Below the pieces are notes generated by a model that saw nothing but the letters and a program-made list of their open reading frames with translations, ran no database searches and was not told the origin of the DNA. Below, in pieces: positions 2,614 through 32,937 of a stretch of DNA of 64,000 bases. A program made the translations under genes and the position numbers. This DNA is from Calditrichia bacterium (GTDB lineage: Bacteria; Calditrichota; Calditrichia; JAJRVZ01): assembly GCA_963777955.1 (NCBI GenBank), contig CAVZSQ010000022.1:224001-288000 (forward strand), given 5' to 3'. The stretch's first letter is position 1; each line of letters begins with the position of its first letter.

Positions 2614-3483
2614 ATGAAAAAGGACATTTTTGGGAAGGGCGAGGCCGTTTTAATAGACCGCATCATGGAGAAATTACCCCTGGATAAAAACAAAGCGGTG
2701 CAGTCCAAAACAAAAAACATGGAGATCCTGGCCTTATCGAATAAAGAGTATTTTTATATTCTCCGTAAAATATTTCACACCTTCATGTTTGATATGAAAG
2801 AATTTGCCATAGATACATATGATCTGTCGGTTGAAGAATATATTAATGCCCTGACCTGGCTTACTTATGTACATTCCATAATCTATAAATTAGATTTAAA
2901 CATAGAAAAACAGGCCAGCCATATTCTGCCTGAGGCCGACATCGATTTTGAATCCGTGCGCACTGAAATAAATCTCTTTCTGCAGGAGCATAATCTGCTG
3001 GATGCCGTGATAGAAAAATGTGTTGAGCGGGTGATCAGGTACCTGGCCTTTGAGCAGCAACAACTCCGTCAGAACAATCGTCTCAGCGCCGCGGAAATCT
3101 TCCGGATCCTGGAATTGAAATCGGCAGACCTGGAAGTACTGCGCAGAATCATATTGAAAGTGGGAAAAATTGATATACCGCAACAGGAAATGGAATTTTT
3201 CAATTTGCTGGATAAAATCCGCGAGATATTCGATGATATCAGGGATTATCAGGAAGATTTGACCCTGAAAAATTTCAATACTTTTATTTACCTGAATAAA
3301 GATTGTCAATCATCCGAACAGGCAATAGAGGTCCTGGAAAAATACATCGAACAGGAATCCGCCAGGTGCCTGTCGCTGATCGACCGCATCGAACATAATA
3401 AACAAAAAAAATTCCTGACCATTTGCGCGAGGTTGAAACAGGAAAAAAAGTACTATCTTGACCGGTTACATCAGATTCCATGA
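2614..3483 (+). CDS. Class I isoprenoid/terpene synthase-fold protein (putative)
   Basis: Helical-looking sequence. EIFDDIRDYQED...NFN matches the second DDxxD motif, LKSA sits at the KT-motif position, and the first Asp-rich motif is degenerate (HSIIYKLDLNIE). Confidence 0.55.
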   Translation: MKKDIFGKGEAVLIDRIMEKLPLDKNKAVQSKTKNMEILALSNKEYFYILRKIFHTFMFDMKEFAIDTYDLSVEEYINALTWLTYVHSIIYKLDLNIEKQASHILPEADIDFESVRTEINLFLQEHNLLDAVIEKCVERVIRYLAFEQQQLRQNNRLSAAEIFRILELKSADLEVLRRIILKVGKIDIPQQEMEFFNLLDKIREIFDDIRDYQEDLTLKNFNTFIYLNKDCQSSEQAIEVLEKYIEQESARCLSLIDRIEHNKQKKFLTICARLKQEKKYYLDRLHQIP

Positions 3484-4568
3484 TCAAAATCCGCCCACAG
3501 TTATCCGCTTTTCTGAAACAATTTAAAAGTGAACAAATACCCCGTCGGGCAATTGATACCAGTCTTTTATCTTCTTTTGAGATTTTACCGGGACTTCTGC
3601 GAGGCAGCGTGGTACAAAGGGTGGTGCTGGCCATACCCGGCCAGGGCTGCTCTTTATTCCGCCGGCCGCAGGGGGGCTGTCTGCACTGCGGCTTATTCAG
3701 TGATGGGATAATCAGCCCCGAAACTGATCAGGAGCAGGTGATCTCCGCCTTCGCTGATAATTTAAACCGCCATGATTTTTCCAAAACACCGGTTCTTTGT
3801 ATCTACGTTCCCGGTTCTTTCCTGGATGATCAGGAGATCGATCCGGAGAGCCGCCGGGCAATTATCTCGCTGGTGGCTCAAAAGACAAAGATTAAGAAAG
3901 TCATTTTTGAATCATTGCCGCAATTTATTACTGCAGCCGGGATTGGCGAATTAAAATCCGTTCTGGCCGATAAAGAGATCGAGATTGCTATCGGCCTGGA
4001 TTCCAGTGATGATCAGATCAGGGATTTATGCATCAATAAAAGTTTTTCTTTACGGACATTCGAGCATGCTTGTGCGCTGCTGCAACGGCTGCAAATACGG
4101 TTTAGCGCTTTCGCTTTGTTAAAACCGCCGTTCCTGACCGAACAGGAATCAATCAGCGATACCATACGCACGGTTCAATATGCATTCAATAAAGGTGCCG
4201 CGGCGGTGTCCATCGAACCGAACACGGTGCAGGAAAATACATTTGTCTGGAAATTATTCCGGAAGAATATGTACCGTCCACCATGGCTCTGGAGCATTCT
4301 CGAAGTGATCAGACAACTTCCGCCGGGAAAAGAGTTGCGGATTGGTGGAATAGTTGTTTATCCCCGGGCGGTTAAAAGCGCGCATAATTGCGAGCTGTGC
4401 ACCGCCGGAATATGGCAGAAAATTCAGGAGTATAATTTAAAACAGGATAAAGATATATTTACCGGTCTGGATTGTAACTGCAAAAACCAATGGTATAAAG
4501 AATTACATATTGATAGTCTGCCTTTAGCTGAACGAATCGAGAATGTTTTACACGAATTGAGCAGATGA
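3480..4568 (+). CDS. Radical SAM protein, RaSEA/TIGR01210-like family
   Basis: Cx9Cx2C (GCSLFRRPQGGCLHC), GSFLDDQEI, FESLPQF, IAIGLDS, INKSF, LLKPPFLTE, YRPPWLWS and C-terminal HNCELC...CNC. ATGA overlap with the upstream gene. Confidence 0.85.
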   Translation: MIKIRPQLSAFLKQFKSEQIPRRAIDTSLLSSFEILPGLLRGSVVQRVVLAIPGQGCSLFRRPQGGCLHCGLFSDGIISPETDQEQVISAFADNLNRHDFSKTPVLCIYVPGSFLDDQEIDPESRRAIISLVAQKTKIKKVIFESLPQFITAAGIGELKSVLADKEIEIAIGLDSSDDQIRDLCINKSFSLRTFEHACALLQRLQIRFSAFALLKPPFLTEQESISDTIRTVQYAFNKGAAAVSIEPNTVQENTFVWKLFRKNMYRPPWLWSILEVIRQLPPGKELRIGGIVVYPRAVKSAHNCELCTAGIWQKIQEYNLKQDKDIFTGLDCNCKNQWYKELHIDSLPLAERIENVLHELSR

Positions 4569-4878: not shown

Positions 4879-7800
4879 ATGATACGAAATTCAAGCAAGT
4901 CGCTATTGTTTATACTGTTATTCTTAGGCGTAAGCCAGGCTCAGAATGCAGTAATCAATGAACTCATGCCGGCCAATTTTCAGACCATTGCCGACGAGGA
5001 TAGCGAATATACCGATTGGCTGGAGATATATAATCCTGCCGCCGAGACTGTTGATCTCAGCGGGTACGGACTTTCTGACGATCGGGATAGTTTAAATAAA
5101 TGGATTTTCCCTCAAGTGATCCTGCCGCCGGACCAGTTTGTGGTAATCTATGCTTCGGATAAGGACAGAAGATTATGGATTAATCACTGGGAAACGGTCA
5201 TTGATCAGGGCGATAGTTGTTATTACCGCGTAAATGATTCGGCCACTCCGGCAAATTGGCAGCAAGCGGGTTATGATGATAGCGGTTGGTCCAGAGGTCC
5301 CAGTGGTTTCGGTTATGGCGATGATGATGATGCCACAATCGTGCCGGCAGTTATGTCGGTATCAGTACGCCAGAAATTCAATATTCCCGATCTGAATAAT
5401 ATTGTGACAGCCATGCTGCATGTGGATTATGATGACGGTTTTGTAGCTTATTTAAATGGCGTTGAGATTGCCCGCCGAAATTTAGGTACCGCGGGAATAG
5501 TTCCTGCCTATGATTTGCCGGCAGATACCTGGATAGAGGCATTGATGTATCAGGGCGGCCGGCCGGAAATCTTCGATTCACCGGAAATATATAGCCTGCT
5601 GCAATCCGGAGAAAATATACTGGCTCTGGAAGTGCACAATTCGAGCAGTACTTCATCCGACCTGACCCTTATTCCTTTTTTCACGCTGGGAATGATGTCT
5701 TTACCGGAAGATCCCCGCGGAATTTCAGAGTCATTGCAGTTCTCCATGCCGCGGTTGCATGCCAATTTTAAATTAAGCGTTTCTGGCGAGTATATTTACC
5801 TCTCCGACACCGGCGGGATTATCGTGGATTCTGTTTTTACCGGATCCATTCCCCAGGATATCTCGCTGGGCCGGCAACCTGACGGCAGTAATAACTGGTA
5901 TTTATTTCCAGCAGCCACGCCGGGACAACCAAATGTAACGCCGGGATATACTGAAATCACCGTTGATCCGGTCTTTTCTTTGCCCGCGGGATTTTATGCG
6001 GCTGCCCAATCATTGACTTTATCCGACAGTGTACCTGATACCACGGTGATCCGTTATACTACGGATGGATCGGTACCGGATAGCAATTCAACCGGCTTTA
6101 GCGTACCGCTGGCCCTGACCGCAACTACCGTCGTACGGGCGCGGGCTTTCGAAAGCGGTAAACTGCCCAGCACCGTTTTAACTAATACCTATTTTATCAA
6201 CGAAAATATCAGTTTACCGGTCGTATCCCTTTCCACCAATCCGGAAAATTTCTGGGATGAGGACAGCGGTATCTATGTATTGGGCAAATATGCCGAGCCG
6301 GATAATCCATATTTCGGAGCAAATTTCTGGCAGGATTGGGAGAAACCGATTCACGTGGAATTCTTTGAAGCAGATGGCCAGTTTGGATTCAGTGTTGATG
6401 CCGGTGTTCAGATTAGCGGTGCCTGGAGCCGGGCTCATCCCCAGAAATCACTGGCAATTTTTGCCCGTAAAAAGTATGGTGCTGATTGTATTGCTTATCA
6501 ACTTTTCCCGGATAAACCCATTGCCGAATTCGAGGCGTTTGTCTTGCGTAATTCGGGAAATGACTGGAATTATGCCTTCATGCGGGATGCCCTGATCACC
6601 ACTTTAATCAGCGGCCGGGGCATCGATGTGCAGGCCTACCGGCCGGTTGTGGTTTTTCTTAACGGCGAATACTGGGGCATTCATGATCTACGCGAAAAAG
6701 TAAACGAACATTTTCTGGCTGCAAACCATGAGGTGGACTCCGATAATATAGATTTGTTGCAGAATAACAGCGATGTCGTACATGGCGATGCCGAGCATTA
6801 TCAGAATATGATCTCATTTCTGGAAACAAATAATATCAATGATTCATTAAATTATATATCGCTGCAGCAGATGATGGACGTGGACAATTTCCTGAATTAT
6901 GAGATCACCCAGATCTATTGTGATAATACCGATTGGCCGGGTAATAATATTAAATACTGGCGGGAAAGAAGCAGTGCCGGAAAGTGGCGCTGGATCATGT
7001 ATGATACCGATTTCGGATTCGGGATTTACGACCGTAATCCGTCCAAGAATACCCTGGAATTTGCCACGGCGGCTGACGGTCCGGATTGGCCCAATCCGCC
7101 CTGGTCGACTTTTTTGTTGCGTAAACTGCTGGAGAATGAAATCTTTAAAACGGAATTTATAAACCGCACAGCCGACCTGCTTAATGCAGAACTCAGCCTG
7201 GCCGGCATAACCCGCTGCATTGATAGTCTGAAAGCGCCGCTGCTGCCGGAAATGGAGCGGCATGTAAACCGCTGGGGATTGTCCTATAGCAACTGGGAGT
7301 CTAATGTCGATTATCTGTACACTTTTGCTCAAGCCCGGGTCGCACCCATGCGTCAGCATGTGATCAGTAAATTTGGTCTGACCGGGACGGCCCAGATTCA
7401 GTTAAATGCATCGGCGGGCGGGAAGATAAGAATCAATTCGTTGACTATTGACGGATTTCCCAGGCAAACTGCCTGGGCGGGGACTTATTTCAGGGGAGTT
7501 CCGATAAAAATAGCCGCCGAACCGGAGCCGGGCTATGCCTTCGCCGGCTGGCAGGGTTCACAGATCAGCAGCGAGGCACAACTGGTTTATACACCGCAAA
7601 GCAATGCCAGTTTCCGTGCTTTTTTTGCGGAAGAGGGTATGCCGGTGGTCTTGAATGAGATAAATTATAACTCCTCAATCGATTTTGACGTTGAAGACTG
7701 GGTTGAGTTCTATAATCGCAGTTCGGCAACGGTCGATCTCAGTTCCTGGCAATTCAGAGATTCCGACGATATACATAATTTTATTTTTCCGGCAGGAACC

Positions 7801-8419
7801 CTTTTAAATCCGGATTCGTATCTGGTAGTATGTCATGATTCGGTTATGTTCAAACAGGGTTTTCCGGAAGTTTCTTTTTTCCCGGTAACTTTAACCTTTG
7901 GTTTGAGCGGCGGCGGGGAATCGCTCTATCTTATAGATGATCAGGGTATTGTGATTGATTCTCTGACCTACGATGACACTGTACCCTGGCCACCTGAAGC
8001 GGATGGCAGGGGGCCGACCCTGGCGCTCAAACATCCGGATCTGGATAATAGTTTACCGGAAAATTGGGCTGCCTCGGCTAATCATGGAACTCCAGGGCAG
8101 CAAAATGACGTCTATTCCGACATAAGATCAGTAAAGCCGGGTATCCCGGATCGATTCAGTCTGGAGCAGAATTATCCGAATCCGTTTAATCCGCGAACCA
8201 CGATCAATTTTCAACTTCCACTCGGCGGGATGGTCCGGCTTGCAAATTTTTGACATCCAGGGCCGGTTGGTGGACAGGATAATTGACAGTCACTTGCCAG
8301 CCGGTGATCACCGGGTAGCCTGGCAGCCTGATTTTAAACTGGCTTCCGGCGTCTATTTTTACCACCTGGAAGTAAAAGACCGTTTTCAGGCTACCAAAAA
8401 AATGATTTTGTTAAGGTAA
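4879..8419 (+). CDS. Secreted CotH kinase-family protein with lamin-tail domains and T9SS-type CTD (+1 frameshift near 8240)
   Basis: Lamin-tail motifs VINELM..DWLEIYN and VLNEINY..DWVEFYN. CotH motifs LRNSGNDW, NGEYWGIHDLRE, DWPGNNIKYW and WRWIMYDTDFGF. QNYPNPFNP is followed in the +1 frame by the rest of the CTD, ending KKMILLR* at 8419. Confidence 0.88.
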
Positions 8420-8655
8420 TTAAGGAGTCACCGGATTTATAAGGGAAACGCGAGGTATAACCAGATTTATCATTTGATCGGTAATTATCTAGATGAGAAT
8501 CAATAAGTTATTTAAATATATTCTGCCGGATTCTGCTCATCTAATTAAATAATTCACTCAAATCAGACGAGAATAGCTTAAGTTATACTAATGTAAATAT
8601 TGAACATTTGAATTTGTTGTTTTGATCTTTTTGTGGATAGTAGGTAAATTAACTG

Positions 8656-9720
8656 ATGCAAAAGAAAATTAATACCAGAACCATCTTAATCGGTGCTGGA
8701 ATCATCCTGCTGCTGATTTTACTGCTGCCTGTTCACCTTCCTTACAGTCTGGTAGTGCAGGGTAAGGTATTACCGGGACAGGTCTGGCTTTTACAACGGC
8801 AAACAGATGGAAGCATGCTGGTAACCTTAAGGGATCATCGGCAAAATATAGTTTCCAGTTATACCGCTTATCAGGTGGAACGCGGAGATGTGTTAAGTTT
8901 TAATCTGTCACCCCGTCTGCAGTCGGACGGTCGGGTAACCAGGGGGGATACCATTGGCTATATCCATTCCAATGTGATCAATGGGGAAATGGCCAATCTG
9001 AGGGGCGCTCTGGATGTAGCCAGGTCCATGTTGTATGTTAATAACACCGGTGAAAAGCAGTCACTGGTTGAAGCAGCCCGGAATCAGTTATCACTCAGCC
9101 GGGAGCAGGCTTTGCTGCAAAACAGGATTCTGGAACGCCAGAAAGATCTGTACGACAGTAATCTGGTCTCGCGGGAAATGTACGAGATTACCCAGGGGAC
9201 ATCAAAAATATACGATTTACAGGCGCTGGTAGCCGAGGCGCAGTTGAAAGCACTGGAAACCGGTTCAAAACCGGAACAGGTACAGTTATCTCTTTCGGAA
9301 ATCAATTCGCTGGAAAGTGAAATTAAAGTACTGGAACAGCGTTTAGATCAGTTTGTGTTGATTTCACCGCTGGCGGGAGAACTTTTTACGCCTTTCTCTG
9401 CAGAAAGTCTGATGTTTATAGCCGATACATCCCGCCTGGTCTATATGCCGGTCGGTCTTCGTGACCTGGCTGAAGTGAAAGTCGCCCAGATTTTTCAGGT
9501 TCGCACTCCTGTCGGCGCAGAAGTGATTAGAGGGAAGATTGTCAAAGTCGACCAGATGATTCAACGTTTGAATGATCAGCAGGTATTTTTTGTGATCGGC
9601 TTGCTGGAAAAAAGACATGCACTGTTGCCGCTGAATCAGATTGTTCCCTGTACTATTAAGGGTCAGAGCAAAACGCCGTGGAAATATCTGGGTAAAATAA
9701 TTCAATCCATGTTCAACTGA
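8656..9720 (+). CDS. HlyD-like membrane fusion/periplasmic adaptor protein
   Basis: N-terminal TM anchor, VTRGDTIG half-lipoyl motif, long coiled coil, LISPLAG second half-motif. Confidence 0.7.
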   Translation: MQKKINTRTILIGAGIILLLILLLPVHLPYSLVVQGKVLPGQVWLLQRQTDGSMLVTLRDHRQNIVSSYTAYQVERGDVLSFNLSPRLQSDGRVTRGDTIGYIHSNVINGEMANLRGALDVARSMLYVNNTGEKQSLVEAARNQLSLSREQALLQNRILERQKDLYDSNLVSREMYEITQGTSKIYDLQALVAEAQLKALETGSKPEQVQLSLSEINSLESEIKVLEQRLDQFVLISPLAGELFTPFSAESLMFIADTSRLVYMPVGLRDLAEVKVAQIFQVRTPVGAEVIRGKIVKVDQMIQRLNDQQVFFVIGLLEKRHALLPLNQIVPCTIKGQSKTPWKYLGKIIQSMFN

Positions 9721-9724
9721 GATT

Positions 9725-10525
9725 ATGGCCCGACTCGAATATAAATATTTATTAGCACAAGAGCAGGTTGCGGCATTTCGCCGGGAGATTGCCCCTTTTG
9801 TCGAACTGGATTCATATTCTGCCAGGGCTGCAGAAAAAAAATATACCGTTCGTAGTATATATTTTGATACCCCTTTACTGGATTTCTATCGTGACAAAGT
9901 TATCGGTCTTAAGAAAAGAAAAAAGATCCGTATTCGCGGGTACAATCATCACAGTGAAAATGATATTACCTTTCTGGAATTAAAAGCTAAAAGTGGTTCA
10001 ACTATCGTAAAATACCGCGCGCCGGTGTTGTACAAAAATCTGGCTGCCCTGCTGCATACGCAGGATATCGGTCAATATATCCTTTGTAATAATGGATTCA
10101 TAAATGTACATGAACAAGCCCAGAGATTTTTATCTGAAGTTTTAAAACGAAACCTGACACCGATCATAAAAATCATGTATGAGCGGGAGGCCTATTTTTA
10201 TAAATTCAATCACCAGGTACGTATTACCCTGGATACTAGTTTACGCAGTAGTGCTACAGTTGCTTTGGATAAATTATATGAAGAGGAAAATCCGGTTTAT
10301 TCATTAATCGGCCAGGCCATTCTGGAAGTAAAAGTCTCTGGTGAAATTCCATCCTGGTTACGTCAGGTAATTGGACGCTTCGATTTACAATTGCAGGCGG
10401 TTTCCAAATATATAATCTGTCTGGAAGATCACAGTAATTATCATCAGCGCCTGGAAAAATCATTGCGGGGATTATCCAAGTATCATCAGTTTAGAAATTT
10501 TATGATCATAGAAAATATGGATTAG
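9725..10525 (+). CDS. VTC-domain (polyphosphate polymerase, CYTH-like) protein
   Basis: RLEYKY, YTVRSIYFDT, RKKIRIRGY, FLELKAK, YEREAY, VRITLD, ILEVK, SKY. Confidence 0.88.
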   Translation: MARLEYKYLLAQEQVAAFRREIAPFVELDSYSARAAEKKYTVRSIYFDTPLLDFYRDKVIGLKKRKKIRIRGYNHHSENDITFLELKAKSGSTIVKYRAPVLYKNLAALLHTQDIGQYILCNNGFINVHEQAQRFLSEVLKRNLTPIIKIMYEREAYFYKFNHQVRITLDTSLRSSATVALDKLYEEENPVYSLIGQAILEVKVSGEIPSWLRQVIGRFDLQLQAVSKYIICLEDHSNYHQRLEKSLRGLSKYHQFRNFMIIENMD

Positions 10526-10529
10526 AAAA

Positions 10530-11199
10530 ATGCTGGAAGGTTTTCAAAGCAATCTGATTAATGTTGTTGAATTCAACACTTTTTTTGTCAATTTAGTGAT
10601 AGCATTAATCTGTGGTTTTATTATTTCGATTTTTTACCGGGTTAGTTACCGGGGACCGCATTATTCAACTTCTTTCGTGCAGGCCATGGTGATACTATCC
10701 ATGGTTACCGCCCTGGTAATCATGGTTATCGGTAATAATCTGGCCCGGGCTTTTGGACTGGTAGGAGCCATGTCGATTATCCGCTTTCGTACGGCGATCA
10801 AGGATACGCAGGATATCGTGTTCATATTCTTTGCCCTGGCTGCGGGTATGGCTGCCGGTGTCGGTTTAAACATTATTGCTATTGCCGGATCACTGTTCAT
10901 CGGGGTGATCCTGCTGGGCTTAAGCAAGTCTGAGTATGCCAAACCGCATAAACGGGATTTTTTACTGCAGTTTCAATGCAAATTAAATGATGCTAATAAT
11001 CCCTACATCACAGTGCTGGAGCAAATTTTGCAAACGGAACAAACTTATCAATATGCAATCCCTCGGCGCTGAAGACCTGTATGAATTTTCCTTTTATGTG
11101 CAATTGAAAGATAAGGAACAGCGCACTGAACTGGTCCGGGAATTAAACCGGTTAGCCGAAATTACTCAGGTACGACTGTTTGTAGATGAGGAAATATAA
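10530..11199 (+). CDS. DUF4956-family membrane protein (+1 frameshift near 11025)
   Basis: IGNNLARAFGLVGAMSIIRFRTAIKDTQDIVFIFFALAAGMAAGVG signature. The soluble C-terminal part continues in ORF 10987-11199. Confidence 0.85.
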
Positions 11200-11366: not shown

Positions 11367-14241
11367 ATGTCAAAGTTTACTAGCATTGTTATCCTGCTGC
11401 TGGTTTTCAGTTTTCATTTGTGGGCAGGTGTTTCGGGTAAGGTTGCGGGGGTGGTGCTGGATTCCCGGACCAGAGAACCCTTACTCGGTGTCAATGTCAT
11501 CATTGCAGGAACTATGATAGGCGCTTCGACGGATGTCGACGGTTTCTACAGTATATTGAACGTACCGCCGGGAACTTACAAACTCGAAGCCAGCTATATC
11601 GGTTACAGCAAGGTTGAAGTGCTCCAGGTGAAAGTCTTCGTTGATCTGACCACCACTATCAATCTTGAAATGGGTGAAACAACCCTGCAGTTGAATGAAA
11701 CGATTACCGTTGTAGCGGAGCGGCCCTTAATAAGGGTGGATGAAGTTACCACACGGCAATATGTTTCGACCGAAGAAATTGAGATACGGCCGGTGGACAG
11801 TTTTCAGGAAATTGCCCAGCAACAGGCCGGGGTGGTGGGAGATAACTTCCGGGGAGGACGAAGTAATGAAGTGCTGGTAATGGTGGATGGCATTGTCCTG
11901 AAAGATCCAGCGTCAACTTATTCAGGTGATATGGGCGGATTCACCTCCGATGTGGTTGAACTGGGCATTCAGGAGATGGAAGTTACCATGGGCGGTTTCA
12001 GTGCGGAATACGGCAATGTACAATCGGGTATATTAAACCTGGCCTTGCAGGAAGGACGTTCAAATTATTCCGGCCGGTTGCGCTTTACCTCTAATAATTT
12101 CGGTAATCTGAATGCTAATATTTATACTACGCAGAATTCCTATCAAATGATGGATTCAACTGATAATATCCACTGGCAGAAAAAAAACCGTCTGATAAAT
12201 TATATCTATGAATTCAACCTGAACGGTCCGGAACCATTGACTTCAGTCATACTGCCGCGGCTGGGACTGACCCTGCCCGGGGCCATGACTTTTTCACTCT
12301 CCAGCGAAATAACCGATACCCGTCACGGTTATTTCATCAATCAAAACTCGTTTGACCAGACCTATCAGGGCAAGTTAACTTATCGTATCTCGCCGGAATT
12401 CAAAATTTCCTATGGGACTATTTATAATAATAATGAATATGACTCCTACTATTACCCGGCTTCCAAGTATGGACCGGCGCCGGATTATCCGGTCAATGAT
12501 CTGAAGTTCATTTTAGCCAATACGGACACGCTGGCGCATTATGTCTATGTACAGGATCCCAGCCCCTGGCATGGTCTGCCGGATATAACCACTCTGGCCC
12601 AGACCGATACGTTTCAGGGCTCCCCTTACAACGCCATCAAAACCTATTATATGGCCGGAATGCAGGAATATCTCTGGGATACTGAGCAAAAAAGCAACAC
12701 TAACTATATAATCTGGACCCATACGTTGAGTCCCAAAATGTATTATGAAGTCAGACTGAATTATTTTTATACTAACTATCATTATGCCGGCCGCGATGTG
12801 GAAGACCGTAATTTCAACGGCGATACAGATGAGGAACTGGTTTGGAATCCGGCTCTGGCCGGTTCGCATCCAATATATCTTGAACAGGAAAATAATTACT
12901 GGTGGTACCGGGGGGATGACGAAGGTTTTCGCGATGAGAAATCGTGGACCTACAGCGCCAAAGGGGACCTGGTCAATCAGCTGACCTCCAAACACCTGTT
13001 AAAGGGCGGGTTCGAATTATATGCTCATCGAACCAAAGTGGAAAATGTCAGCTGGACGCTGGGTTATGGACAATTCCGCAAGGATATCTGGGATAAACGC
13101 AGTCTGGATTTTGGAGCCTACATTCAGGATAAGATGGAATTCACCGGACTCATCGGATTAATCGGATTGCGTTTTGATGTCTTCGACCCGGGGAGAGTGC
13201 CTTATCCCGCTAATTATGAAAATCCCTATTCCAGCAAGGACAGTCTGGGTATTCCCATTATCAATGATCCTAAATATACAAAAATACAGTATCAGTTCAG
13301 TCCGCGTATCGGTTTCTCTCATCCGATATCAGCTACCGATGTGCTCCATTTTGCTTATGGACATTACTTTCAGCGACCCGATGGATATTTCTTATACCGC
13401 AATTACCTGATGAACAGTCTGACCAAAGTCGGCAATTACATTGGTAATCCCGGTTTGAAGCCGGAGAAGACGGTATCTTACGAGCTGGGGGTTGAACATC
13501 TTTTTACTGATGATATCAAAGCTGACGGTTACCGGTTATTATAAGGATGTAAGTAATCTGATGAACTGGCGGAAATACGTTGGACGCAGTATACAGAATA
13601 TCGAATTGAATGTTTACACCAATGCGGACTACGGCAATATTAAAGGTCTGGAGTTTACCGTGGTCAAACGACCGGGTAGATTCTGGGGTGCTTCAGCCAA
13701 TTATACCTTCTCGGTAGCCAAAGGGCGCAGTTCCACTTACTCCAGCGGTTCCGGAGGATTCACGGATGTAAAACGCATGAATATCCTCGACTTCGATCAA
13801 ACCCATACAATAAATGCCAATGTTACCCTGCAAACTCCGCAGGCCTTCGGTCCGGGTATCGGCTCGTTCAAACCCTTTGAAATGTGGGTGGCCAATATTC
13901 AATTCAGCTATGGCAGCGGCTTACCGTATTCATCCTACGGCAGCGGATTGATCAATGATAAACGAATGCCGTTTACCGCCATGACCGATCTTAAATTGAT
14001 TCGCAGTTTTAATATTAAACCGGTTACCTTTGACTTGTTTATCGATATTTTTAATCTTTTCAATGACAACAATGTAAATTTTATCGGTAACACTGAATTA
14101 TATGAAGAATATTACCGGCAAACGGGGAAGCGTGATCCGTCCATAGTTGATACGGACGGTATAACCGGCGATTATATACGTCATCCGCAAACCTACAGTG
14201 TCGACCGCCAGCTTCGCTTCGGTCTGATCGTTAAATTTTAA
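11367..14241 (+). CDS. TonB-dependent receptor with N-terminal carboxypeptidase-regulatory-like domain (+1 frameshift near 13520)
   Basis: GKVAGVVLDS..GVNVII..GASTDVDGFYSILNVPPGTY, plug motifs RGGRSNEV and GGFSAEYGN, barrel motifs FSPRIGFSHPI and GNPGLKPEKT, C-terminal F. ORFs 11367-13544 and 13492-14241. Confidence 0.9.
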
Positions 14242-14267
14242 TCCGGGCATTTTAAGGGAGAAGAACC

Positions 14268-16253
14268 ATGCAGGTATATAGCAGTTTTAAAAAATTGATC
14301 TGCCTGTTATGTCTGATACTGATATCGGCCACAACAATCAGGGCGGCTGATCCAGCTGATAAAAAACCAGGACAGTTGTCCAGGGGCATACTAGCCGGAC
14401 CGGTCGTTGCAGATGATTGGGCTTTTCATCAGATCGGTACTGTCTGGCAGCGCGTAACCAATTTCGGTTTTGCCGGTGATGATGCCTATGAAAACAGGAC
14501 ACCATCATGCGATTGGCCGGGAGGATCGGGCAACTCATATCTGTATCGTGGTACATTCTGGTTGACCGCACGCATCGATGGTGTGATACATTCTTCACAG
14601 GGCGATGACCATGAATTTGCTTCCATCGATTCGGTACATGTTTTAACCGGGAATAACGCGGTGCGTTCAGAACAGGATACTTACACGCATTATTACGATG
14701 TACAGGCTCCCCTGGCTGAAGGCCATACACCTTTAGGTCTTGAGGTTACGGAACGAACCTATGCCTGGAGTGAAAGTTTCAGGGATGATTTTATTATTTA
14801 TGAATATACCATTAAGAATGTAGGCATCGATTCGGATGCTGATGGCTATCCGGATACAGCGCAAGATCTGCAGGAATTTTACTTCACTTACCGTCTGGAT
14901 GCTGATGTTTCGAAACGGGCCGACTGGGCCGCAGAAATGAAGTTCTCCAATCAGGACGACCTGGGTGCCTGCAATGCTTTTTGGGGCTGGATCGAACAAT
15001 ATTTTCCTGCCTGGTGGGCCGAATCTAACGGTTTCTTTACAGCAGAAAAAGCAGACAGCAGTATGATGTTCATGTGGGATGCGAATAATCCCGACTATCC
15101 TGCCGACAATGGTCAGGAGGACGATACCGGTAATCCGGGTGCAGACGGAACATTGCAATCTCCGGGTTTTATCTGTTTTAAAGTCATGAAGACTGATCCT
15201 CCTGAATTCAGGGTGAGTTCGTTCCATCAGAACCATATTTATAATGATCCGGCCACCGATCAGGAAGCATATGACCGGATGATGGCACCGCGGGTATTCG
15301 AAGGTCCGGTGGTCCTCAGGGGTGTACCATATCCCTACGATTACCGGGCAATATTGACGCTGGGCCCTTTGGATCAACTGGCTTATGGCGATTCGGTGGT
15401 GATCACTGCAGCCATTGGCGTGGGAGCGGATGCGGACAGCGGCGGCGTTTACAGCCTGATCGAACTGGTTAAGATAATGGATGTGGCACAACTCATTGTG
15501 GATAACGATTATAATATCGGAGCCCTGGCTGCGCAGGCTCCCGGTCTGAATATCACTTATTCAATTCAAAATGGAAGTCTCAATGGTTTGAATATCATCT
15601 GGGACAATACTCCGGAAAGCAATTCCAGATTCCGGGGCTATAAGGTATGGAAAAGCAGTAAGAAAACAGAATTGGGTGCATTCGACTGGAAACCGCTGGG
15701 TGATGGATATTATGTTATTGGACAGAATAATCCCCCTGCCGGCGATGATGCCGGGACGTACAAAATTTTTGATACGGATATTATCCGGGGATTTGATTAT
15801 GCTTATGCGGTGCAATCGGTCAGTTACGATTCAATATTTCAATTTATGGAATCAAATATTAACGCCAATTTGAAAGTTGTTACTCCAGCCAATCCGGCAA
15901 CCAACAGCCTGGACCGGGTTAAAGTAGTACCCAACCCATATATCGGCAGCGCAATCTGGAATAATTCCTTACCCAGCGATTCCGAACCCTGGGAACACCG
16001 TCTGCAATTCATCAATCTCCCCGCTGATGCCAGCATAAAAATATTTACTCTGGATGGAGATCTGGTTGAAGAAATTCGTGCCGGTCAGGGTGTACGCAGA
16101 AGTACTTCGTTTATCGGTGAAACCGGCGCCGGTGTGGCCGAATGGGATCTGATTACCCGTAATAACCAGGAAGCGGCACCGGGTATTTATCTGTATGTAG
16201 TACAATCTCCCAGCTGTGGGGAAAAAGTCGGAAAATTTGTCATTGTGCGTTAA
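14268..16253 (+). CDS. Large secreted TBDR-partner protein with FN3-like segment and atypical 'VVPNPY' CTD
   Basis: Sec signal without lipobox; FRGYKVWKS..YAYAVQS; C-terminus LDRVKVVPNPY..FINLP..IKIFTLDG..WDL..APGIYLYVV..GKFVIVR. Confidence 0.8.
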   Translation: MQVYSSFKKLICLLCLILISATTIRAADPADKKPGQLSRGILAGPVVADDWAFHQIGTVWQRVTNFGFAGDDAYENRTPSCDWPGGSGNSYLYRGTFWLTARIDGVIHSSQGDDHEFASIDSVHVLTGNNAVRSEQDTYTHYYDVQAPLAEGHTPLGLEVTERTYAWSESFRDDFIIYEYTIKNVGIDSDADGYPDTAQDLQEFYFTYRLDADVSKRADWAAEMKFSNQDDLGACNAFWGWIEQYFPAWWAESNGFFTAEKADSSMMFMWDANNPDYPADNGQEDDTGNPGADGTLQSPGFICFKVMKTDPPEFRVSSFHQNHIYNDPATDQEAYDRMMAPRVFEGPVVLRGVPYPYDYRAILTLGPLDQLAYGDSVVITAAIGVGADADSGGVYSLIELVKIMDVAQLIVDNDYNIGALAAQAPGLNITYSIQNGSLNGLNIIWDNTPESNSRFRGYKVWKSSKKTELGAFDWKPLGDGYYVIGQNNPPAGDDAGTYKIFDTDIIRGFDYAYAVQSVSYDSIFQFMESNINANLKVVTPANPATNSLDRVKVVPNPYIGSAIWNNSLPSDSEPWEHRLQFINLPADASIKIFTLDGDLVEEIRAGQGVRRSTSFIGETGAGVAEWDLITRNNQEAAPGIYLYVVQSPSCGEKVGKFVIVR

Positions 16254-16281
16254 CTATAGAATAAAGTTTGAGGTAACTGCG

Positions 16282-17277
16282 ATGTATAAAAAAATATATA
16301 TTTGGCTGATCATGGTTGCCCTGGCCTTCAGTAACCCGGTTTCAGCGCAGCAATTTGCCCCGGTAGGTACGGCGGTGGCACAATTCCTGGAAGTCGGGAT
16401 CGGTGCCCGGGGTGTGGGCATGGGAGAAGCATTTACTGCCCTGACCAATGATGTAAATTCTGTTTTCTGGAATCCGGCCGGTCTGGCCAATATACAGGAT
16501 AAGCAACTTGTTCTGAATTATAACCGCTGGCCTGCGGAGATCTCCATCGGAGGTATGGCTTTTGGTATGAACTTTGACCGGATCGGTGTCTTTACCCTGA
16601 GCGCGGTTTATCTGGCCACCGGAAAAATGGACGTGACTACAGTCTATGATCCGGAGGGCACCAGCGGTCAAACCTTTAATATCACCAACTATGCGCTGGG
16701 ACTTTCCTATTCACGATATATGACCGAACGGTTGGCCGTGGGAATTACGCTGAAGTTGGTCAGTGAGAAGTATTGGACTTACGGTTATACTACCGCTGCA
16801 ATCGATCTGGGTACTTGTTACCATACGGGATATCATGGCCTGAATATAGCCATGTCCATTTTACATTTTGGTCCCGAAGTGAAATTTTCCGGCAGGTACA
16901 TTGATAACAGCGATCCTCTGTCGGTGAACCTGAATAAGACAAAGTCATTCGAGACCTATTCGCTGCCGATCAATTTCCGTTTTGGTCTCAGCATGGATAT
17001 TCTGGAAGATAGCGAGAACCATCTGGTCGGTGCTGCCGACATGATCCATCCGAATAACAATCTGGAACAGTATAATCTGGGCCTGGAATATGGTTATTAC
17101 CGGTTGTTTTTCCTGCGCGGCGGCTATAAGTTTACTGCCGATGATGGCGGATTGAATCTGGGTCTGGGATTCAGGTATGTACTGACCGAAAAAATTTCGT
17201 TGGATCTTGATTATGCCTATTCGGCCATGGGCGTTCTTACGGATATACACCGCCTGGGTCTGGGATTTGCCTTCTAA
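16282..17277 (+). CDS. PorV/PorQ-family outer-membrane beta-barrel
   Basis: AQFLEVGIGARGVGMGEAFTA..SVFWNPAGLA, GLEY..FFLRGGY, LDYAY, terminal F. ATG at 16282 follows GAGG. Confidence 0.88.
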   Translation: MYKKIYIWLIMVALAFSNPVSAQQFAPVGTAVAQFLEVGIGARGVGMGEAFTALTNDVNSVFWNPAGLANIQDKQLVLNYNRWPAEISIGGMAFGMNFDRIGVFTLSAVYLATGKMDVTTVYDPEGTSGQTFNITNYALGLSYSRYMTERLAVGITLKLVSEKYWTYGYTTAAIDLGTCYHTGYHGLNIAMSILHFGPEVKFSGRYIDNSDPLSVNLNKTKSFETYSLPINFRFGLSMDILEDSENHLVGAADMIHPNNNLEQYNLGLEYGYYRLFFLRGGYKFTADDGGLNLGLGFRYVLTEKISLDLDYAYSAMGVLTDIHRLGLGFAF

Positions 17278-17293
17278 CAGGGACGCAAAATTT

Positions 17294-18604
17294 TTGAAGT
17301 TCTTACTGATTTTATTAATCAGCATTAGTTTGTCTGCTCAACTTGATGCTCAGACATATTTAGATATTCCCGCTTTAAGTGATTCGGTCAATCTGGATCG
17401 TTTAAAGGGTACGATAGATTCGCTGACCTGGGCGGGGGGATATCAGAATCGTGTCGCCTACAGCGCAGGAAGTTATTATTCTGCCGGTTATCTGGCCCGT
17501 TCCTTTGCTGCTTTGCCCGGAATCTCCACTGTCCAGCTGGATACGTTTTACTATACACCTGCGCAGGATCCGTATAGCCATTACCCGCTGATAAATGTGG
17601 TTGCCACCATGGAGGGTAGCAGCACTGAAACGATCATTATTGGTGCTCATTATGATGCCTCGGGCAACCGCGAAAATGAACAGGACTGGCTGAATAACTG
17701 GAGTACTCTGAAAGTTCAGGGCGCCGATGATAATGCCAGTGGTGTCGCAGCTGTTATAGAAATTGCCAGGGTGCTAAGTGATCCGGCGCAGCAGTTTGAT
17801 AATCAGTCGACTCTGCAGTTCATCGCTTTTGCCGCTGAAGAGACCCATCCCATGACAGATAGTCATCATTTGGGCAGTTTGTACGATGCCTACTGGCATT
17901 CACAACGGGGCACGAATATTAAAGCGGTGCTGGTGCTGGATATGATCGCATATAATTCTATTATGGATTATATGGAGATCATCTCTGATCCGGCATCGGT
18001 CTGGCTGGCGGATAGCATTCGGCAGCTGGCCATGATTTACCTGCCCGATCTTACCGTCAACAGTGCGCCCTATCCCAATGTAACTTACAGTGACCATCAA
18101 TCATACTGGAACTATGGTTTTCCTGCTATCCTGCTGATGGAGAACGACAGCCCCTGGAATAATGATTTGCCCTATTATAGCAACAATCCGTATTATCACA
18201 AGGTTTCTGATCTCGCTGCCACACTGAATTTTTCCTTACTGCATAAAACTACTAAACTGGCCCTGACCGCCCTGGCAGCACTGGCCTATAACTCTACGCC
18301 CAGCGGCTGGCCTGTGGAAAAAACCGCGGAGCGCAGAAGTCAGGTTGTCCCGATATCCGTTTTGCCGAATCCGTTTAACAGCACTGCAAATATAAAATTT
18401 TCGCTGCGGCAGGGTACGCCTGTAAATTTTGACGTTTATGATATAAGCGGAGGCAAGGTCGAAACGGTTATTAAGAATTTGTATTTTACTTCCGGATCCC
18501 ATACGATTCAGTGGCAGCCGGCAGGACTGGCCAGCGGAGTATATATCGGTATTCTTGATGCGGCCGGTTTTAGACAAAGTGTTAAATTAGTCTTGTTAAA
18601 ATAA
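17294..18604 (+). CDS. Secreted M28-family peptidase with T9SS-type CTD
   Basis: IGAHYD, GADDNASG, FAAEE, LDMIAY, SDHQSYW, YYH; PNPFN..ASGVY CTD. TTG start at 17294 gives a signal peptide (the ORF track starts it at 17207). Confidence 0.88.
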   Translation: MKFLLILLISISLSAQLDAQTYLDIPALSDSVNLDRLKGTIDSLTWAGGYQNRVAYSAGSYYSAGYLARSFAALPGISTVQLDTFYYTPAQDPYSHYPLINVVATMEGSSTETIIIGAHYDASGNRENEQDWLNNWSTLKVQGADDNASGVAAVIEIARVLSDPAQQFDNQSTLQFIAFAAEETHPMTDSHHLGSLYDAYWHSQRGTNIKAVLVLDMIAYNSIMDYMEIISDPASVWLADSIRQLAMIYLPDLTVNSAPYPNVTYSDHQSYWNYGFPAILLMENDSPWNNDLPYYSNNPYYHKVSDLAATLNFSLLHKTTKLALTALAALAYNSTPSGWPVEKTAERRSQVVPISVLPNPFNSTANIKFSLRQGTPVNFDVYDISGGKVETVIKNLYFTSGSHTIQWQPAGLASGVYIGILDAAGFRQSVKLVLLK

Positions 18605-18707
18605 AAGAAAATTGAGATTTTACCACGCTAAGTAGAATTAAAGCAGAAATAGTCAACTTTTTTAATTTAATTCGTTTGACATTTAATAATCAATCAGAGG
18701 AGGTCCT

Positions 18708-20372
18708 ATGAAGTCAAGTTTTATTACTATGTTATTTTGTTTAGTCATCGGGGTATTTTTAATTAATTCGCCGGTATTTGCTCAGGGTTTTACGCGTGGT
18801 ACCGAAATTGCGGTTCCGGAAACCGAACTGAATACCGGTGGTACCGGCGCCATGGTGGCCGGCGTCGATCTGGATAATGACGGCCTGACCGAGATCTATC
18901 TGGTTAACGACAACTGGAATGACACGCCGTCCGAATTAATTCCGCGTATTTATAAACTGGAGAGAAACCAGGGCGGCGTTTGGGAAGTAGTCTGGAAAGC
19001 GGTCGCACCGGTAAAACTCCAGAATACCTGGCCGCCGCTGGTAGTAGGCGACCTGGATAAGGATGGTAAAAAGGAGTTAATCTGGGGTGTGGTAAATTTT
19101 ATAACTGACTCCACTATGAATCCGTATCGTATTCTGGTTTACGAAGTAAAAGGGGATGGCAGTGATGTGCTGGGCATTTCATCCGGGGATAATTATTTGC
19201 CTAATGCTAAAACGACGATTGTAAGTGAGGATGATAAAAATATACGCCCATCCCAGTTTGTGCTGGCTGATGTAAATGAAGATACTAACGACGAGATTAT
19301 CTTTTCCGATCGTGGCGGCGAGAGCGGAGATAGCGTATTCTTTGGCGTTATTTCCGTTTCCAATATCCCCGACAACGGCGATGGCAGCGAGACCTGGACT
19401 CTGTTGACCAGTGCTTTAGATTTTGAGACCGGCGAGATTTACAACAAATGGGATGCAGCGGTGCTGGGCAAGAATTGCTACTTTTTCTGTGAAGCGCAGA
19501 TCAGCAAATTATACTGGGAAGCACAGGCCTGGCATTTTGAAGCCCTGACTCCGCTGGCGGGTGGAGCCGCCTGGCTTACTTCTCAAACTGTTGATCTGAA
19601 CAAGGATCAAACCAAGGAAATATTGACCGTGGCCTACGATTACGCAGATGACACTCATAAGGCTGTAGTGTTGCTGCAGGAAGACGGTGATTCGCTTAAA
19701 CAGACTGAATTATTCAATCTGGCCAGTTACTGGCCCACCGGAAGTCGTGGCGGAGTCGGCAGTGCGGTCGGTGATATCGATGGTGACAACTACCTGGATT
19801 ACATTTTTGGTTCCCGCGGCGGTGCAACCAATGCTTTCATTTTCCGCCTGGCTTACCGCGGGGGTGACATTACCAATCCGGCCAGTTATGAATTGACCGT
19901 CATCGATCAGGAATATGCTGTGGGCGGTGTCTGGAATGTCATCAGTTTAGCCGATGTCGATGCTGAAGCGGGATTGGAAGTATTATATACCTCCAGTATT
20001 GACGCCGGTGAGTTCCCCGATCTGGGTACCAAACCCATCATCGTTTTGAAGTACAGTGCTTCGGCAATTGGCGAGCGGGATGTCAATGTTATCAGCGAAT
20101 ATAGTTTGACACAGAATTATCCCAATCCGTTCAATCCGTGGACTGAATTCGAATTTACATTGCCCCGGGCTGCTGAAGTGAAAATTTCTATATATGATAT
20201 CAACGGCCGTCTGATTAATACACTGGTTAATGCTGGTTATCCGGCCGGACGTTATCTGGTTAAGTGGAATGGCACAGATGCCGCAGGACTAAAAGTTTCC
20301 AGCGGTACGTATTTTTATACCATGGAAGCCGATCAGGTAACTATAGCCAGGAAGATGATGCTGGTAAAATAG
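18708..20372 (+). CDS. Secreted FG-GAP/VCBS-repeat protein with FlgD-like T9SS CTD
   Basis: GAGGAGG RBS; repeats DLDNDGLTEI, GDLDKDGKKEL, DVNEDTNDEI, GDIDGDNYLD; QNYPNPFNP..KMMLVK. Confidence 0.85.
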   Translation: MKSSFITMLFCLVIGVFLINSPVFAQGFTRGTEIAVPETELNTGGTGAMVAGVDLDNDGLTEIYLVNDNWNDTPSELIPRIYKLERNQGGVWEVVWKAVAPVKLQNTWPPLVVGDLDKDGKKELIWGVVNFITDSTMNPYRILVYEVKGDGSDVLGISSGDNYLPNAKTTIVSEDDKNIRPSQFVLADVNEDTNDEIIFSDRGGESGDSVFFGVISVSNIPDNGDGSETWTLLTSALDFETGEIYNKWDAAVLGKNCYFFCEAQISKLYWEAQAWHFEALTPLAGGAAWLTSQTVDLNKDQTKEILTVAYDYADDTHKAVVLLQEDGDSLKQTELFNLASYWPTGSRGGVGSAVGDIDGDNYLDYIFGSRGGATNAFIFRLAYRGGDITNPASYELTVIDQEYAVGGVWNVISLADVDAEAGLEVLYTSSIDAGEFPDLGTKPIIVLKYSASAIGERDVNVISEYSLTQNYPNPFNPWTEFEFTLPRAAEVKISIYDINGRLINTLVNAGYPAGRYLVKWNGTDAAGLKVSSGTYFYTMEADQVTIARKMMLVK

Positions 20373-29668: not shown

Positions 29669-29681
29669 GAATAGATGCACT

Positions 29682-32600: not shown

Positions 32601-32906
32601 ATCGCCGTAGTGCCCAATCCCTATGTTGCAGCAGCAGCATGGGAACCAAGTTCACCCTTCCGAACGGGTCGCGGTGAACGACGAATCTATTTCACCAATT
32701 TACCACCGGCATGCACCATACGCATCTATACCATCAGCGGATATCTGGTCGATACAATTGAACATAAAGAGACGATCGAGAATGGATCTGAATCCTGGAA
32801 TTTACTTTCCAGGGACGGACAGGATATTGCTTATGGGATATATCTTTATCATGTGCAGGCGCCGGGTATAGGTGAAAAGATTGGTAAATTCGCTTTGATC
32901 AAATAA
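29682..32906 (+). CDS. Large secreted TBDR-partner protein with Asp-rich Ca-binding-like motifs, FN3-like segment and 'VVPNPY' CTD
   Basis: Sec signal; DDDGNGLIDD and DNDTDGLIDE; FEGYRLYRS..YYYAIVSYD; DKIAVVPNPY..FTNLP..IRIYTISG..WNL..AYGIYLYHV..GKFALIK. Confidence 0.82.
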   Translation: MKKSVIIQLTFCLLWTVLTPAFAQRQPDPNVGNEKLRRQGTMDGNLVRTVFINWGEIAHWPDSPSGEWPKGTGHQYVDGVALVVQARTRDTSGNPIYPLETQYREFVDRGPQDQLWGWAPLPGYFNPQGDKPAITTDPTSWPDHWPDKADGWINPNEIRNDFDDDGNGLIDDVVYWNGFFGKGVFNADVETYFVFDDDPDEEWAFYPDPFDSTRRGLGLEVASRLFQWSQVLAEDVIFSVYFITNEGKTDYDSTYYCFYIDWGVGGTDDSSDDTGDYNTLLDIAWAWDYDGYGTPGNWNPVGVAGFAFLESPGIYDDLADNDTDGLIDETRTSAGPGAFLDTEPYGVDDRTDFVNYYHREPAAHWESDEDGDWQGYTDVDLNNQWDEGEPLNDDVGEDGLNPNDFGYPGPDLGEGDGMPTAGEPNYDFLDKDEADQIGLTGFRIFPVHTYELWNEEQNWGVFRSAPPPHSQQVTANLGMFFSSGPFPLKAGDTQNYSMALLFGEDENDLVLTKNTIQQIYNADYRFAKPPDKPRLLSVLPGDGQVTLVWDARAEKSWDPFLQEYDFEGYRLYRSTEPEFLDTRLITDAYGRLVFRKPLVEFDLKNGIQGLHPVDLQGANFDMGTDNGLQHHYVDKNVKNGQTYYYAIVSYDHGLVDTSATGGLSGIPPSECTSKIEQDLAGNILTDINTTRVIPAAPAAGFVGPEYNDYKRETIGTGDVQIEFLFPDSVLNGHTYAIEFGDTTYLHHTGNPYYLIYDITGDPKIARTDTIWIAELSQSPLVDGFLVKIENNQSEFVLEESGWVIGNSTYRWRVNLDKDFAGTLNLNINYPADFEFYFAETIVDTAENKLAYPPRVATKFRVQNITENINAHFQFKEFYTVDSTLSPYLPWQNPDSIEAALIWVDDPDPQNPLKLRTTWRLYFEADGTAGQIPPAAGDIFRIATRKPFRTGDRVTFTVSGKRFDLQKAKVDLDKIAVVPNPYVAAAAWEPSSPFRTGRGERRIYFTNLPPACTIRIYTISGYLVDTIEHKETIENGSESWNLLSRDGQDIAYGIYLYHVQAPGIGEKIGKFALIK

Positions 32907-32937
32907 GAAATAAGTTCAAACAGGCAGGATACAGGCC

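Follow-up and report, generated by a model that had tools for sequence, protein, structure and literature searches.

An adaptor–VTC–DUF4956 gene unit with a frequent CotH kinase neighbour: a candidate system for polyphosphate export in diderm bacteria

In a 64,000-nucleotide stretch of the genome of a Calditrichia bacterium (assembly GCA_963777955.1, 4.24 Mb in 27 contigs; contig CAVZSQ010000022.1, here C22, positions 224,001 to 288,000), hereafter the window, four co-oriented genes on the + strand across positions 4879-11199 encode a CotH-family atypical kinase, a periplasmic adaptor, a stand-alone enzyme of the VTC family and a DUF4956 membrane protein. An earlier note on this DNA, made from the sequence alone, had proposed that the four genes together make, export and use polyphosphate. 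We found that the adaptor, VTC and DUF4956 genes are the core of a conserved unit and that CotH is a frequent accessory, a division that follows from the fixed adjacency of the core genes as opposed to the partial presence of CotH. The linkage of the genes is far beyond chance; Fisher tests on the locus counts overstate it, because kin are not independent, and are not relied on here. Comparison of the loci across envelope types suggests that something made by VTC and DUF4956 crosses the envelope, and we interpret the core, tentatively and with somewhat less than an even chance of being right, as a system for synthesis-coupled export of polyphosphate through a borrowed TolC.

Among 41 related genomes, 21 encode VTC. 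The adaptor subfamily (profile threshold E <= 1e-25) is present in 19 of these 21 and in none of the 20 VTC-negative genomes, and each of the 20 adaptor copies immediately precedes a VTC gene. In 20 loci from the related genomes, DUF4956 follows VTC in every case, the adaptor precedes VTC in 19 and a CotH kinase domain is found in 11. Collection-wide, we examined the best 80 of at least 589 VTC loci, the genomes of which partly overlap the 41-genome sample, so that the counts are not added. The adaptor is adjacent to VTC in 66 of the 71 non-Chloroflexota loci among these; five loci deviate, namely three in which VTC stands alone, with no DUF4956 (L054, L060 and L071), a VTC-DUF4956 pair (L122) and one contig edge. 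CotH occurs within the stretch in 25 of the same 71 loci, 35 of which have full flanks and include 16 with CotH, its recurrence by sampled group being 16/35, 14/20, 10/20 and 10/20 loci, and in some loci it is located between DUF4956 and VTC. The module is common across the five sampled groups, with VTC in 21/41, 50/101, 49/251, 25/121 and 15/61 genomes, and VTC was also detected in 3 of 14 control genomes, those of B. thetaiotaomicron, C. glutamicum and the archaeon M. acetivorans. CotH is encoded in these three and in B. subtilis, and the pairing of CotH with VTC thus reaches an archaeon. A plasmid search returned 2 records, and in a Bacillota plasmid record CotH neighbours the module. The earlier note correctly described the orientation of the four genes and the spacing of the last three (adaptor to VTC and VTC to DUF4956, 4 bp each), and its expectation that the adaptor is conserved with the module is borne out. 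In contrast, its inclusion of CotH in the set needs correction, given the 236 bp between the CotH stop (8419) and the adaptor, the full-flank count and the CotH genes of VTC-negative genomes discussed below.

The best evidence that a product of VTC and DUF4956 may cross the envelope is the match between the outer parts of the module and the type of envelope: three different outer-envelope kits occupy the same slot, and single-membrane cells have none of them. Anaerolineae lack an outer membrane. The adaptor is found in 0 of the 9 Anaerolineae loci (one uninformative) among the best 80 of at least 589, and in five of those genomes a genome-wide search did not find the subfamily (best E 4e-23, partial). 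A wider set of 26 VTC loci, comprising several VTC types from 25 of 121 Anaerolineae genomes, contains no adaptor within 1.5 kb of VTC; 20 of the Anaerolineae loci have flanks of about 6 kb, with the subfamily adaptor in 0/20 and DUF2490 in 0/20, and one of them shows two generic adaptors a few genes off. The class of genome G167 has the adaptor in 20/20 loci (the best 20 of 52 matches listed); this class was meant as a Gammaproteobacteria control, its loci resemble those of Ignavibacteria and Bacteroidota, and the samples leave out Proteobacteria. In Bacteroidia (the class of G166; 20 of 57 matches), DUF2490 is found in 18 of 20 loci, the adaptor in one, neither in one and both in none. The DUF2490 protein, which we take to be an outer-membrane barrel, an assignment that fits its sequence here, is basic (isoelectric point, pI, 9.2-9.6 in three checked), and loci L238-L256 comprise CotH, one or two 135-aa lipoproteins, a 190-aa YD/RHS-like secreted protein, VTC, DUF4956 and DUF2490. 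The 14 loci from the phylum of G169 include ten with the adaptor, one at a contig end, two with neither part and one variant, L322 (G526:C1:304000-317000), in which DUF4956, a different HlyD-type adaptor, TolC and VTC follow one another in this order, with no pump gene among the four. The L322 adaptor is fused to a DUF6929/DUF6910-like domain, and the locus appears, from its gene content, to be a complete envelope-spanning version of the module. The earlier note had asked whether the adaptor accompanies the module only in diderms; it is indeed confined to diderms in our samples, and it is not universal among them, as Bacteroidia attest. In five diderm loci with neither adaptor nor barrel (L042, L249, L305, L323 and L324), CotH has an anchor-like N-terminus and no sorting domain was seen; these CotHs may represent one subfamily.

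The adaptor, which the earlier note had called HlyD-type, is by its predicted structure a true MacA/EmrA-type periplasmic adaptor. Single-sequence HlyD matches are weak (best 1.3e-7, below cut-off), but the profile matches MacA at 4e-12, and the AlphaFold model (predicted local distance difference test score, pLDDT, 93.9) matches MacA and EmrA in Foldseek with E values of 1.5e-13 and 2.5e-12, respectively; 61 Foldseek matches were obtained at E <= 0.001, and every listed row is an adaptor. The protein comprises an N-terminal membrane anchor, seen as a hydrophobic stretch in the hydropathy scan, a beta-barrel, a lipoyl domain, a long alpha-hairpin and a C-terminal helix, with extra strands in the lipoyl region at about residues 42-84. 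The RLS motif is well conserved, with R161 in 144, L165 in 132 and S172 in 121 of 146 rows. RxxxLxxxxxxS at the hairpin tip is the motif shown to bind TolC (PMC3391258). Because the adaptor alone cannot span the outer membrane and the locus is without TolC, the duct must, we infer, be borrowed from elsewhere in the genome. We rejected a dedicated orphan TolC in this genome, where eight of nine TolC loci are inside their own ABC or RND pump operons and the ninth is at a contig end. The genome encodes several ABC and RND pumps, and those next to TolC genes come with adaptors of their own. No pump recurs among the neighbours of the module; a MacAB operon with its own adaptor is located upstream in one small clade. 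As the earlier note had it, no pump stands beside the adaptor: we found no ABC, RND or TolC gene among the scanned open reading frames (ORFs) of the window (44 protein entries, which represent the majority of the long ORFs).

The VTC assignment is supported by Pfam (PF09359, E 1.4e-43, 149.5 bits vs a cut-off of 23). The protein is a single domain of 266 aa without SPX, signal or membrane segment, and the hydropathy scan detected no hydrophobic stretch, in agreement with the earlier description. Its sole relatives in PDB by profile are Vtc4, Vtc2 and Vtc3 (best 1.1e-13, Vtc4). In the alignment, R3, E5, K7, R69, R71, K87, E201 and K203 face Vtc4 R196, T198, K200, R264, R266, K281, E426 and K428, respectively; R69, R71 and E201 are invariant in 89/89 rows, and mutation of R264, R266 and E426 together inactivates the yeast complex (PMC9911596). 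K228 is invariant as well, and its match to Vtc4 K458 is deduced from spacing, beyond the printed alignment. Hydrolytic tunnel enzymes have a set of four glutamates in place of basic residues of Vtc4, and a catalytic role of K458 is confined to Vtc4 (PMC4641920). R3 and K203 (and K96/R98) are basic where the hydrolases have Glu. For this mapping of the hydrolase glutamates through AtTTM3, we took the motif to be ExExK. The basic R3, K96 and K203 together with the invariant K228 suggest a polymerase, but the acidic position 5 is hydrolase-like. In line with the polyphosphate synthesis proposed in the earlier note, sequence comparison suggests that the enzyme is likely closer to the Vtc4 polymerase than to a triphosphatase and likely makes polyphosphate. 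PPK1 is present in 18 of 21 VTC-positive and 9 of 20 VTC-negative genomes, which rules out VTC as a replacement for PPK1.

DUF4956 (Pfam E 1.3e-16) shows three broad hydrophobic stretches in the hydropathy scan, and in the model of the intact orthologue from L025 (pLDDT 73), five helices are combined with an ACT-like domain, consistent with the multi-spanning protein described earlier. MgtC (PF02308) is matched by 122 of 124 DUF4956 members at E <= 0.1 (best 4.6e-6), with all scores below the curated cut-off (14.8 bits for the first member vs 31.4), and the MgtC model matches a DUF4956 gene over model positions 1-117 of 121; comparison of the two families with hhalign, with only 4 MgtC rows, gave a probability of 32% and an E value of 5e-4. 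A preprint on S. intermedius makes the same MgtC assignment (10.1101/2024.04.20.589940). Fold searches with the DUF4956 model returned ACT-like matches only (Z 8-10; MgtC C-terminal domains at Z 8.5, tied with many others), the membrane part being barely tested by them, and an Atlas search for the membrane part gave nothing above 0.77. DUF202 was found in 0 of 5 genomes, 4 of them with DUF4956, and is not among the 25 of 29 families listed for the 124 DUF4956 members, which include MgtC; a PDB profile search with DUF4956 to E 10 yielded no VTC chain. On these grounds, we rejected DUF4956 as a Vtc1 homologue, and the split VTC complex proposed in the earlier note is an analogy. DUF4956 proteins share the invariant motif GNNLARAFGLVGAMxxIRFRTAxK, and the third helix carries invariant R73, R85 and R87, followed by K91 (numbering of the L025 orthologue). 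In yeast, each subunit contributes one helix, the basic residues of which line the pore (PMC9911596), and a DUF4956 ring could, by convergence, form a comparable basic-lined pore. A complex prediction for VTC (residues 1-245) with three DUF4956 copies (L025 orthologues) scored 0.05 and 0.17 vs a mark of 0.32, which counts neither for nor against binding.

The CotH protein (Pfam E 1.6e-57, 195.9 bits vs a cut-off of 23.8) contains, in order, an N-terminal signal-like stretch that is hydrophobic in the hydropathy scan, a lamin-tail domain, an Fn3-associated domain, the kinase, a second lamin-tail domain and a C-terminal sorting domain of the type IX secretion system (T9SS). The signal peptide and T9SS tail of the earlier note stand in part: the signal-like stretch is present, and the tail is frameshifted here, with no Pfam match for either piece, but intact in orthologues, that of L025 from the same family scoring 1.3e-10 to Por_Secre_tail. 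The same sorting-tail motif is found in 130 ORFs of the genome, and the window has a PorV-like gene at 16216-17277. The catalytic set D685, N690 and D709 is present (conservation over 55 rows), and these residues, mapped by motif and spacing, are the putative equivalents of D166, N171 and D184 of PKA; a phmmer search with the CotH core matched no PDB chain, and the numbering therefore follows the motif. Residue roles are taken from work on Bacillus CotH, where Tyr142 and Trp245 sandwich the adenine (PMC12189002), with the residue mapping our own deduction. The apparent counterparts, H602 and Y708, are 106 residues apart; position 602 is Y in 43 of 55 rows (H here), and position 708 is W, Y or F in 53 of 55. 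Aromatics at these positions favour a nucleotide donor, so that polyphosphate as the direct donor of CotH is doubtful, and we consider its direct use unlikely; together with the loose linkage of CotH, this makes the phosphoryl transfer from polyphosphate to CotH substrates the weakest step of the scheme in the earlier note. The genome has 7 CotH loci vs one module, and CotH is present in 21 of the 21 VTC-positive genomes of the 41-genome sample. It is plausible that the neighbouring CotH is a loosely linked client or accessory rather than an obligate part.

Under the favoured model of polyphosphate export, VTC would be positioned on the inner side of the inner membrane, where a DUF4956 ring opens to the cytoplasm, and would polymerise phosphate derived from adenosine triphosphate (ATP) there. 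Several DUF4956 copies would constitute the inner-membrane pore, lined by the helix with R73, R85 and R87; the adaptor would dock on this pore and on a shared TolC, bridging the periplasm, and TolC would let the chain out of the cell. The exported polymer might then supply high-energy phosphate to the approximately seven secreted CotH kinases, directly or via a nucleotide, which is the least certain step. The broadest form of the model, PPK-independent polyphosphate secretion by a Vtc4-type polymerase and an MgtC-like pore with interchangeable outer parts (adaptor and TolC; DUF2490 barrel and lipoproteins; none in single-membrane cells) that feeds secreted CotH kinases, is in its entirety rather unlikely. 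If true, it would define a new class of tripartite exporter and answer how extracytoplasmic kinases work. If polyphosphate is exported at all, the module would be a second bacterial route to the polymer and the first mechanism that places it outside the cell, an MgtC-like protein would acquire a transport role, adaptor-TolC ducts would acquire a new kind of inner-membrane partner, and the phosphate source of secreted bacterial kinases would become testable. All steps are amenable to assay with purified proteins, and for the barrel variant a tractable host is available in Bacteroides thetaiotaomicron.

Several observations weigh against this interpretation. With a median pI of 6.4, the adaptor as a whole is not basic. 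There is no dedicated TolC, eight of the nine loci belonging to other pump operons, and TolC occurs in only 2 of the 80 best stretches and never adjacent to the module (the profile, built from this genome, could miss distant ones). To our knowledge, no MgtC-family protein passes a polymer. Position 5 of VTC, which is Thr (T198) in Vtc4 and a metal-binding Glu (Glu-4) in the hydrolases, is acidic: it is E in 89/89 rows, and among 58 rows that are more distant, 57 have E or D. The eight closest Anaerolineae VTCs form one clade (support 95 in a quick tree, with L050 outside the alignment), so that their lack of the adaptor amounts to one loss event, and in L122 the VTC-DUF4956 pair stands without an adaptor, a barrel or a CotH in its surroundings. 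As for the secreted kinase, CotH retains the apparent adenine-stacking aromatics and is present in 6 of the 20 VTC-negative genomes, five of which are 95-100% complete (one a single contig) and also without DUF4956; eight CotHs from these five have signal-like N-termini and sorting-type tails, with Asn at the N690 position, and thus the full D/N/D set, in four and Ser in the other four. Finally, deletion of each gene of the related trio in S. intermedius left Pel and most of the aggregation intact (10.1101/2024.04.20.589940).

Other explanations of the same loci place the product elsewhere or change its identity. The module could supply exported kinases with ATP or a very short chain via DUF4956 and the adaptor, CotH then being an ordinary ATP kinase. 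The aromatics at both putative adenine-stacking positions (43/55 and 53/55 rows) and CotH in all 21 VTC-positive genomes are compatible with such a supply, as is the tie of MgtC proteins to ATP and phosphate balance (10.1101/2024.04.20.589940); however, invariance extends over the entire basic tunnel and the catalytic set of Vtc4, which exceeds the needs of ATP hand-over, and 19 of the 35 loci with full flanks have no CotH in the core locus, and we regard this explanation as not very probable. It is still less probable that polyphosphate is made or trimmed in the cytoplasm under the control of DUF4956 and its ACT domain, with no export of the VTC product and with an adaptor that uses a pump encoded elsewhere. 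The authors of the S. intermedius study suggest that the product remains cytoplasmic (10.1101/2024.04.20.589940), and the MgtC architecture of DUF4956, the several ABC and RND pumps of the genome and the three lone VTC genes without DUF4956 (L054, L060 and L071) would all be accommodated. But across the 41 genomes the adaptor subfamily is always accompanied by VTC, two alternative envelope sets (DUF2490 plus lipoproteins; a different adaptor plus TolC) take the same place, the pumps next to TolC genes possess adaptors of their own, and PPK1 is already present.

A third possibility retains the export of polyphosphate and considers it an end in itself, the polymer acting as a surface polyanion, a cation chelator or a mineral seed with CotH as a co-inherited bystander. 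In this genome, CotH is 236 bp away and belongs to a set of 7 CotH loci, having a secreted protein as neighbour costs little when 130 ORFs share the sorting-tail motif, and CotH persists without the module in 6 genomes. Nevertheless, no other neighbour recurs as often as CotH in unrelated phyla (16/35, 14/20, 10/20 and 10/20), it sits between DUF4956 and VTC in some loci, and it is found in the Bacillota plasmid record and in Gram-positive pel loci, all of which renders the bystander role quite improbable. The least probable of these explanations reverses the direction: polyphosphate or organic triphosphates freed outside would be taken up and hydrolysed by VTC as a tripolyphosphatase. RLS-motif adaptors serve export, basic residues occupy, as in Vtc4, two or more of the four positions at which hydrolases have glutamate, and a secreted kinase fold requires a donor, not a sink; on the other side are the acidic residue retained at position 5, the resemblance of the Bacteroidia barrel, lipoproteins and secreted repeat protein to an uptake system, and neighbours that include phytase-like propellers, phosphoesterases, a PHO4 transporter and PPK2.

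The closest known parallel to the proposed polyphosphate exporter is the eukaryotic VTC complex (Vtc4/Vtc3/Vtc1; PDB 3G3Q, 7YTJ and 8I6V), which belongs to the same tunnel-enzyme family and the catalytic residues of which are kept here. In yeast, synthesis is coupled to a basic-lined membrane pore (PMC9911596), as we propose for the bacterial module. Unlike the yeast proteins, the module has no SPX domain, its enzyme and membrane part are separate genes, position 5 is acidic, a membrane part of the MgtC type that bears an ACT domain takes the place of a Vtc1/DUF202-like one, a periplasmic adaptor is added, and the proposed target is outside the cell. The module may work like the yeast polymerase-translocase without membership in that complex, and it is no standard tripartite pump either. 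The adaptor fold, N-terminal anchor and RLS motif are shared with MacAB-TolC, EmrAB-TolC and HlyBD-TolC, whereas the locus is without an ABC, RND or MFS transporter or TolC, the lipoyl region has extra strands, and the proposed inner-membrane partner, unlike that of tripartite pumps, is a small MgtC-like protein with an enzyme. DUF4956 resembles MgtC/SapB (PF02308) in its helical membrane domain and C-terminal ACT-like domain, with a weak match over nearly the whole model, but scores below the cut-off, has its own invariant motif and is always beside VTC. In alginate secretion, with the adaptor-like Alg44, a polymer made at the inner membrane is led across the envelope by dedicated parts; that polymer is a polysaccharide from a GT2 synthase. 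With the Bacillus spore-coat kinase, CotH shares the Pfam domain, the D/N/D set and the two aromatic positions (PMC12189002) and differs from it in the signal-like N-terminus, the lamin-tail and Fn3-associated domains, the T9SS-type tail and the non-sporulating host.

A trio of CotH, poly-phosphate polymerase and DUF4956 genes has been described beside Gram-positive pel genes with no function assigned (10.1101/768473; 10.1101/2024.04.20.589940), in agreement with the remark in the earlier note that the three co-occur in other bacteria. In that trio, too, CotH is secreted, the VTC-like protein is cytoplasmic and the third member is MgtC-like with transmembrane and ACT parts; in contrast, the locus studied here has no pel genes, an added adaptor and a diderm host. 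The accessible part of 10.1101/2024.04.20.589940 finds the trio only inside pel operons, whereas it is widespread in our samples, and export is not proposed in the accessible parts of that preprint or of 10.1101/768473. Genes for VTC and CotH feature in the gene list of C. perfringens NELoc-2 (PMC11677781), and DUF4956-DUF2490 appears in an expression table for B. thetaiotaomicron (PMC10434189). In the literature covered (mostly open papers; bioRxiv supplements may bear on this), we found nothing on the adaptor-bearing form or on export by the module.

The coordinates of the four genes and their notable parts are listed in the table. Two of the genes are interrupted: CotH has one extra base at 8239, its ORF ending at 8253 and the shifted frame continuing to 8419, and DUF4956 has one extra base at 11021/11022, its ORF ending at 11072 and the shifted frame continuing to 11199. 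Both extra bases are absent from the contigs of close relatives (4/4 compared runs), the CotH tail is unbroken in the same-genus genome G001, and other genes within the window are split alike, at ~13500 (a TonB receptor), ~33450-33700 (a second PorV-like gene) and ~37770 (probably GH130). Taken together, the split genes suggest indel errors in the assembly, and the frameshifts in CotH and DUF4956 are likely to be such errors; the runs compared at the frameshift sites come from relatives that are other strains, and the extra bases could also be a recent real lesion. Scans for promoters (21 vs 16.3 +/- 3.8) and terminators (6 vs 7.5 +/- 2.8) in the window were at the level of shuffled sequence.

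Table. Positions in the window of the adaptor-VTC-DUF4956 core, the CotH gene and their parts.
Feature	Position	Strand	Basis and remarks
CotH-family atypical kinase gene	4879..8419	+	Pfam, ORF and frame comparison; loosely linked accessory gene
CotH kinase domain, residues 510-821	6406..7341	+	Pfam range; conservation over 55 rows
CotH C-terminal sorting domain, in two frames due to an extra base	8152..8419	+	Intact in G001; Por_Secre_tail match in L025
Periplasmic adaptor (membrane fusion protein), 354 aa	8656..9720	+	Profile, model, Foldseek
RLS motif R161, L165, S172 at predicted hairpin tip	9136..9171	+	Row conservation; tip position from model
Stand-alone VTC-family triphosphate tunnel enzyme, 266 aa	9725..10525	+	Pfam, profile alignment
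DUF4956 membrane protein: MgtC-like helical membrane domain, then ACT-like domain	10530..11199	+	Pfam, orthologue model

Certain genes recur around the module in other genomes. PPK2 follows it in four Ignavibacteriales-type loci (L051, L066, L084 and L085), a PHO4 transporter is near it in two (L062 and L064), an H+-pyrophosphatase in three Anaerolineae (L076, L080 and L090) and SdiA-regulated/phytase-like propellers in about ten (L097, L276 and relatives). Cthe_2159 carbohydrate-binding proteins often come after DUF4956 (L024, L026, L104, L278-L281 and other Anaerolineae loci), and in L042, L101, L111, L121 and L326 the module is located among glycosyltransferases. The Cthe_2159 proteins and the glycosyltransferase neighbours hint at surface glycans as the substrate of CotH.

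Within the window, the module is followed on the + strand, at 11367-20372, by the TonB-dependent receptor that is frameshifted near 13500, a 661-aa secreted protein without a family, the PorV-like barrel, and an M28 peptidase and an FG-GAP protein that bear sorting tails; a comparable series of receptor, large protein and PorV-like gene is found again at 26972-33962. Upstream of the module, a radical SAM protein (3480-4568, +) scores 233 bits vs a cut-off of 212 to TIGR01210 (archaeosine biosynthesis RaSEA), in a bacterium, and a search of this genome for an ArcS-type DUF5591 found none. A 289-aa gene (2614-3483, +) overlaps the radical SAM gene by 4 bp and has no family match; its product contains a DDIRDYQED motif, which to us is reminiscent of isoprenoid-synthase folds. 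The two genes are possibly a small biosynthetic pair.

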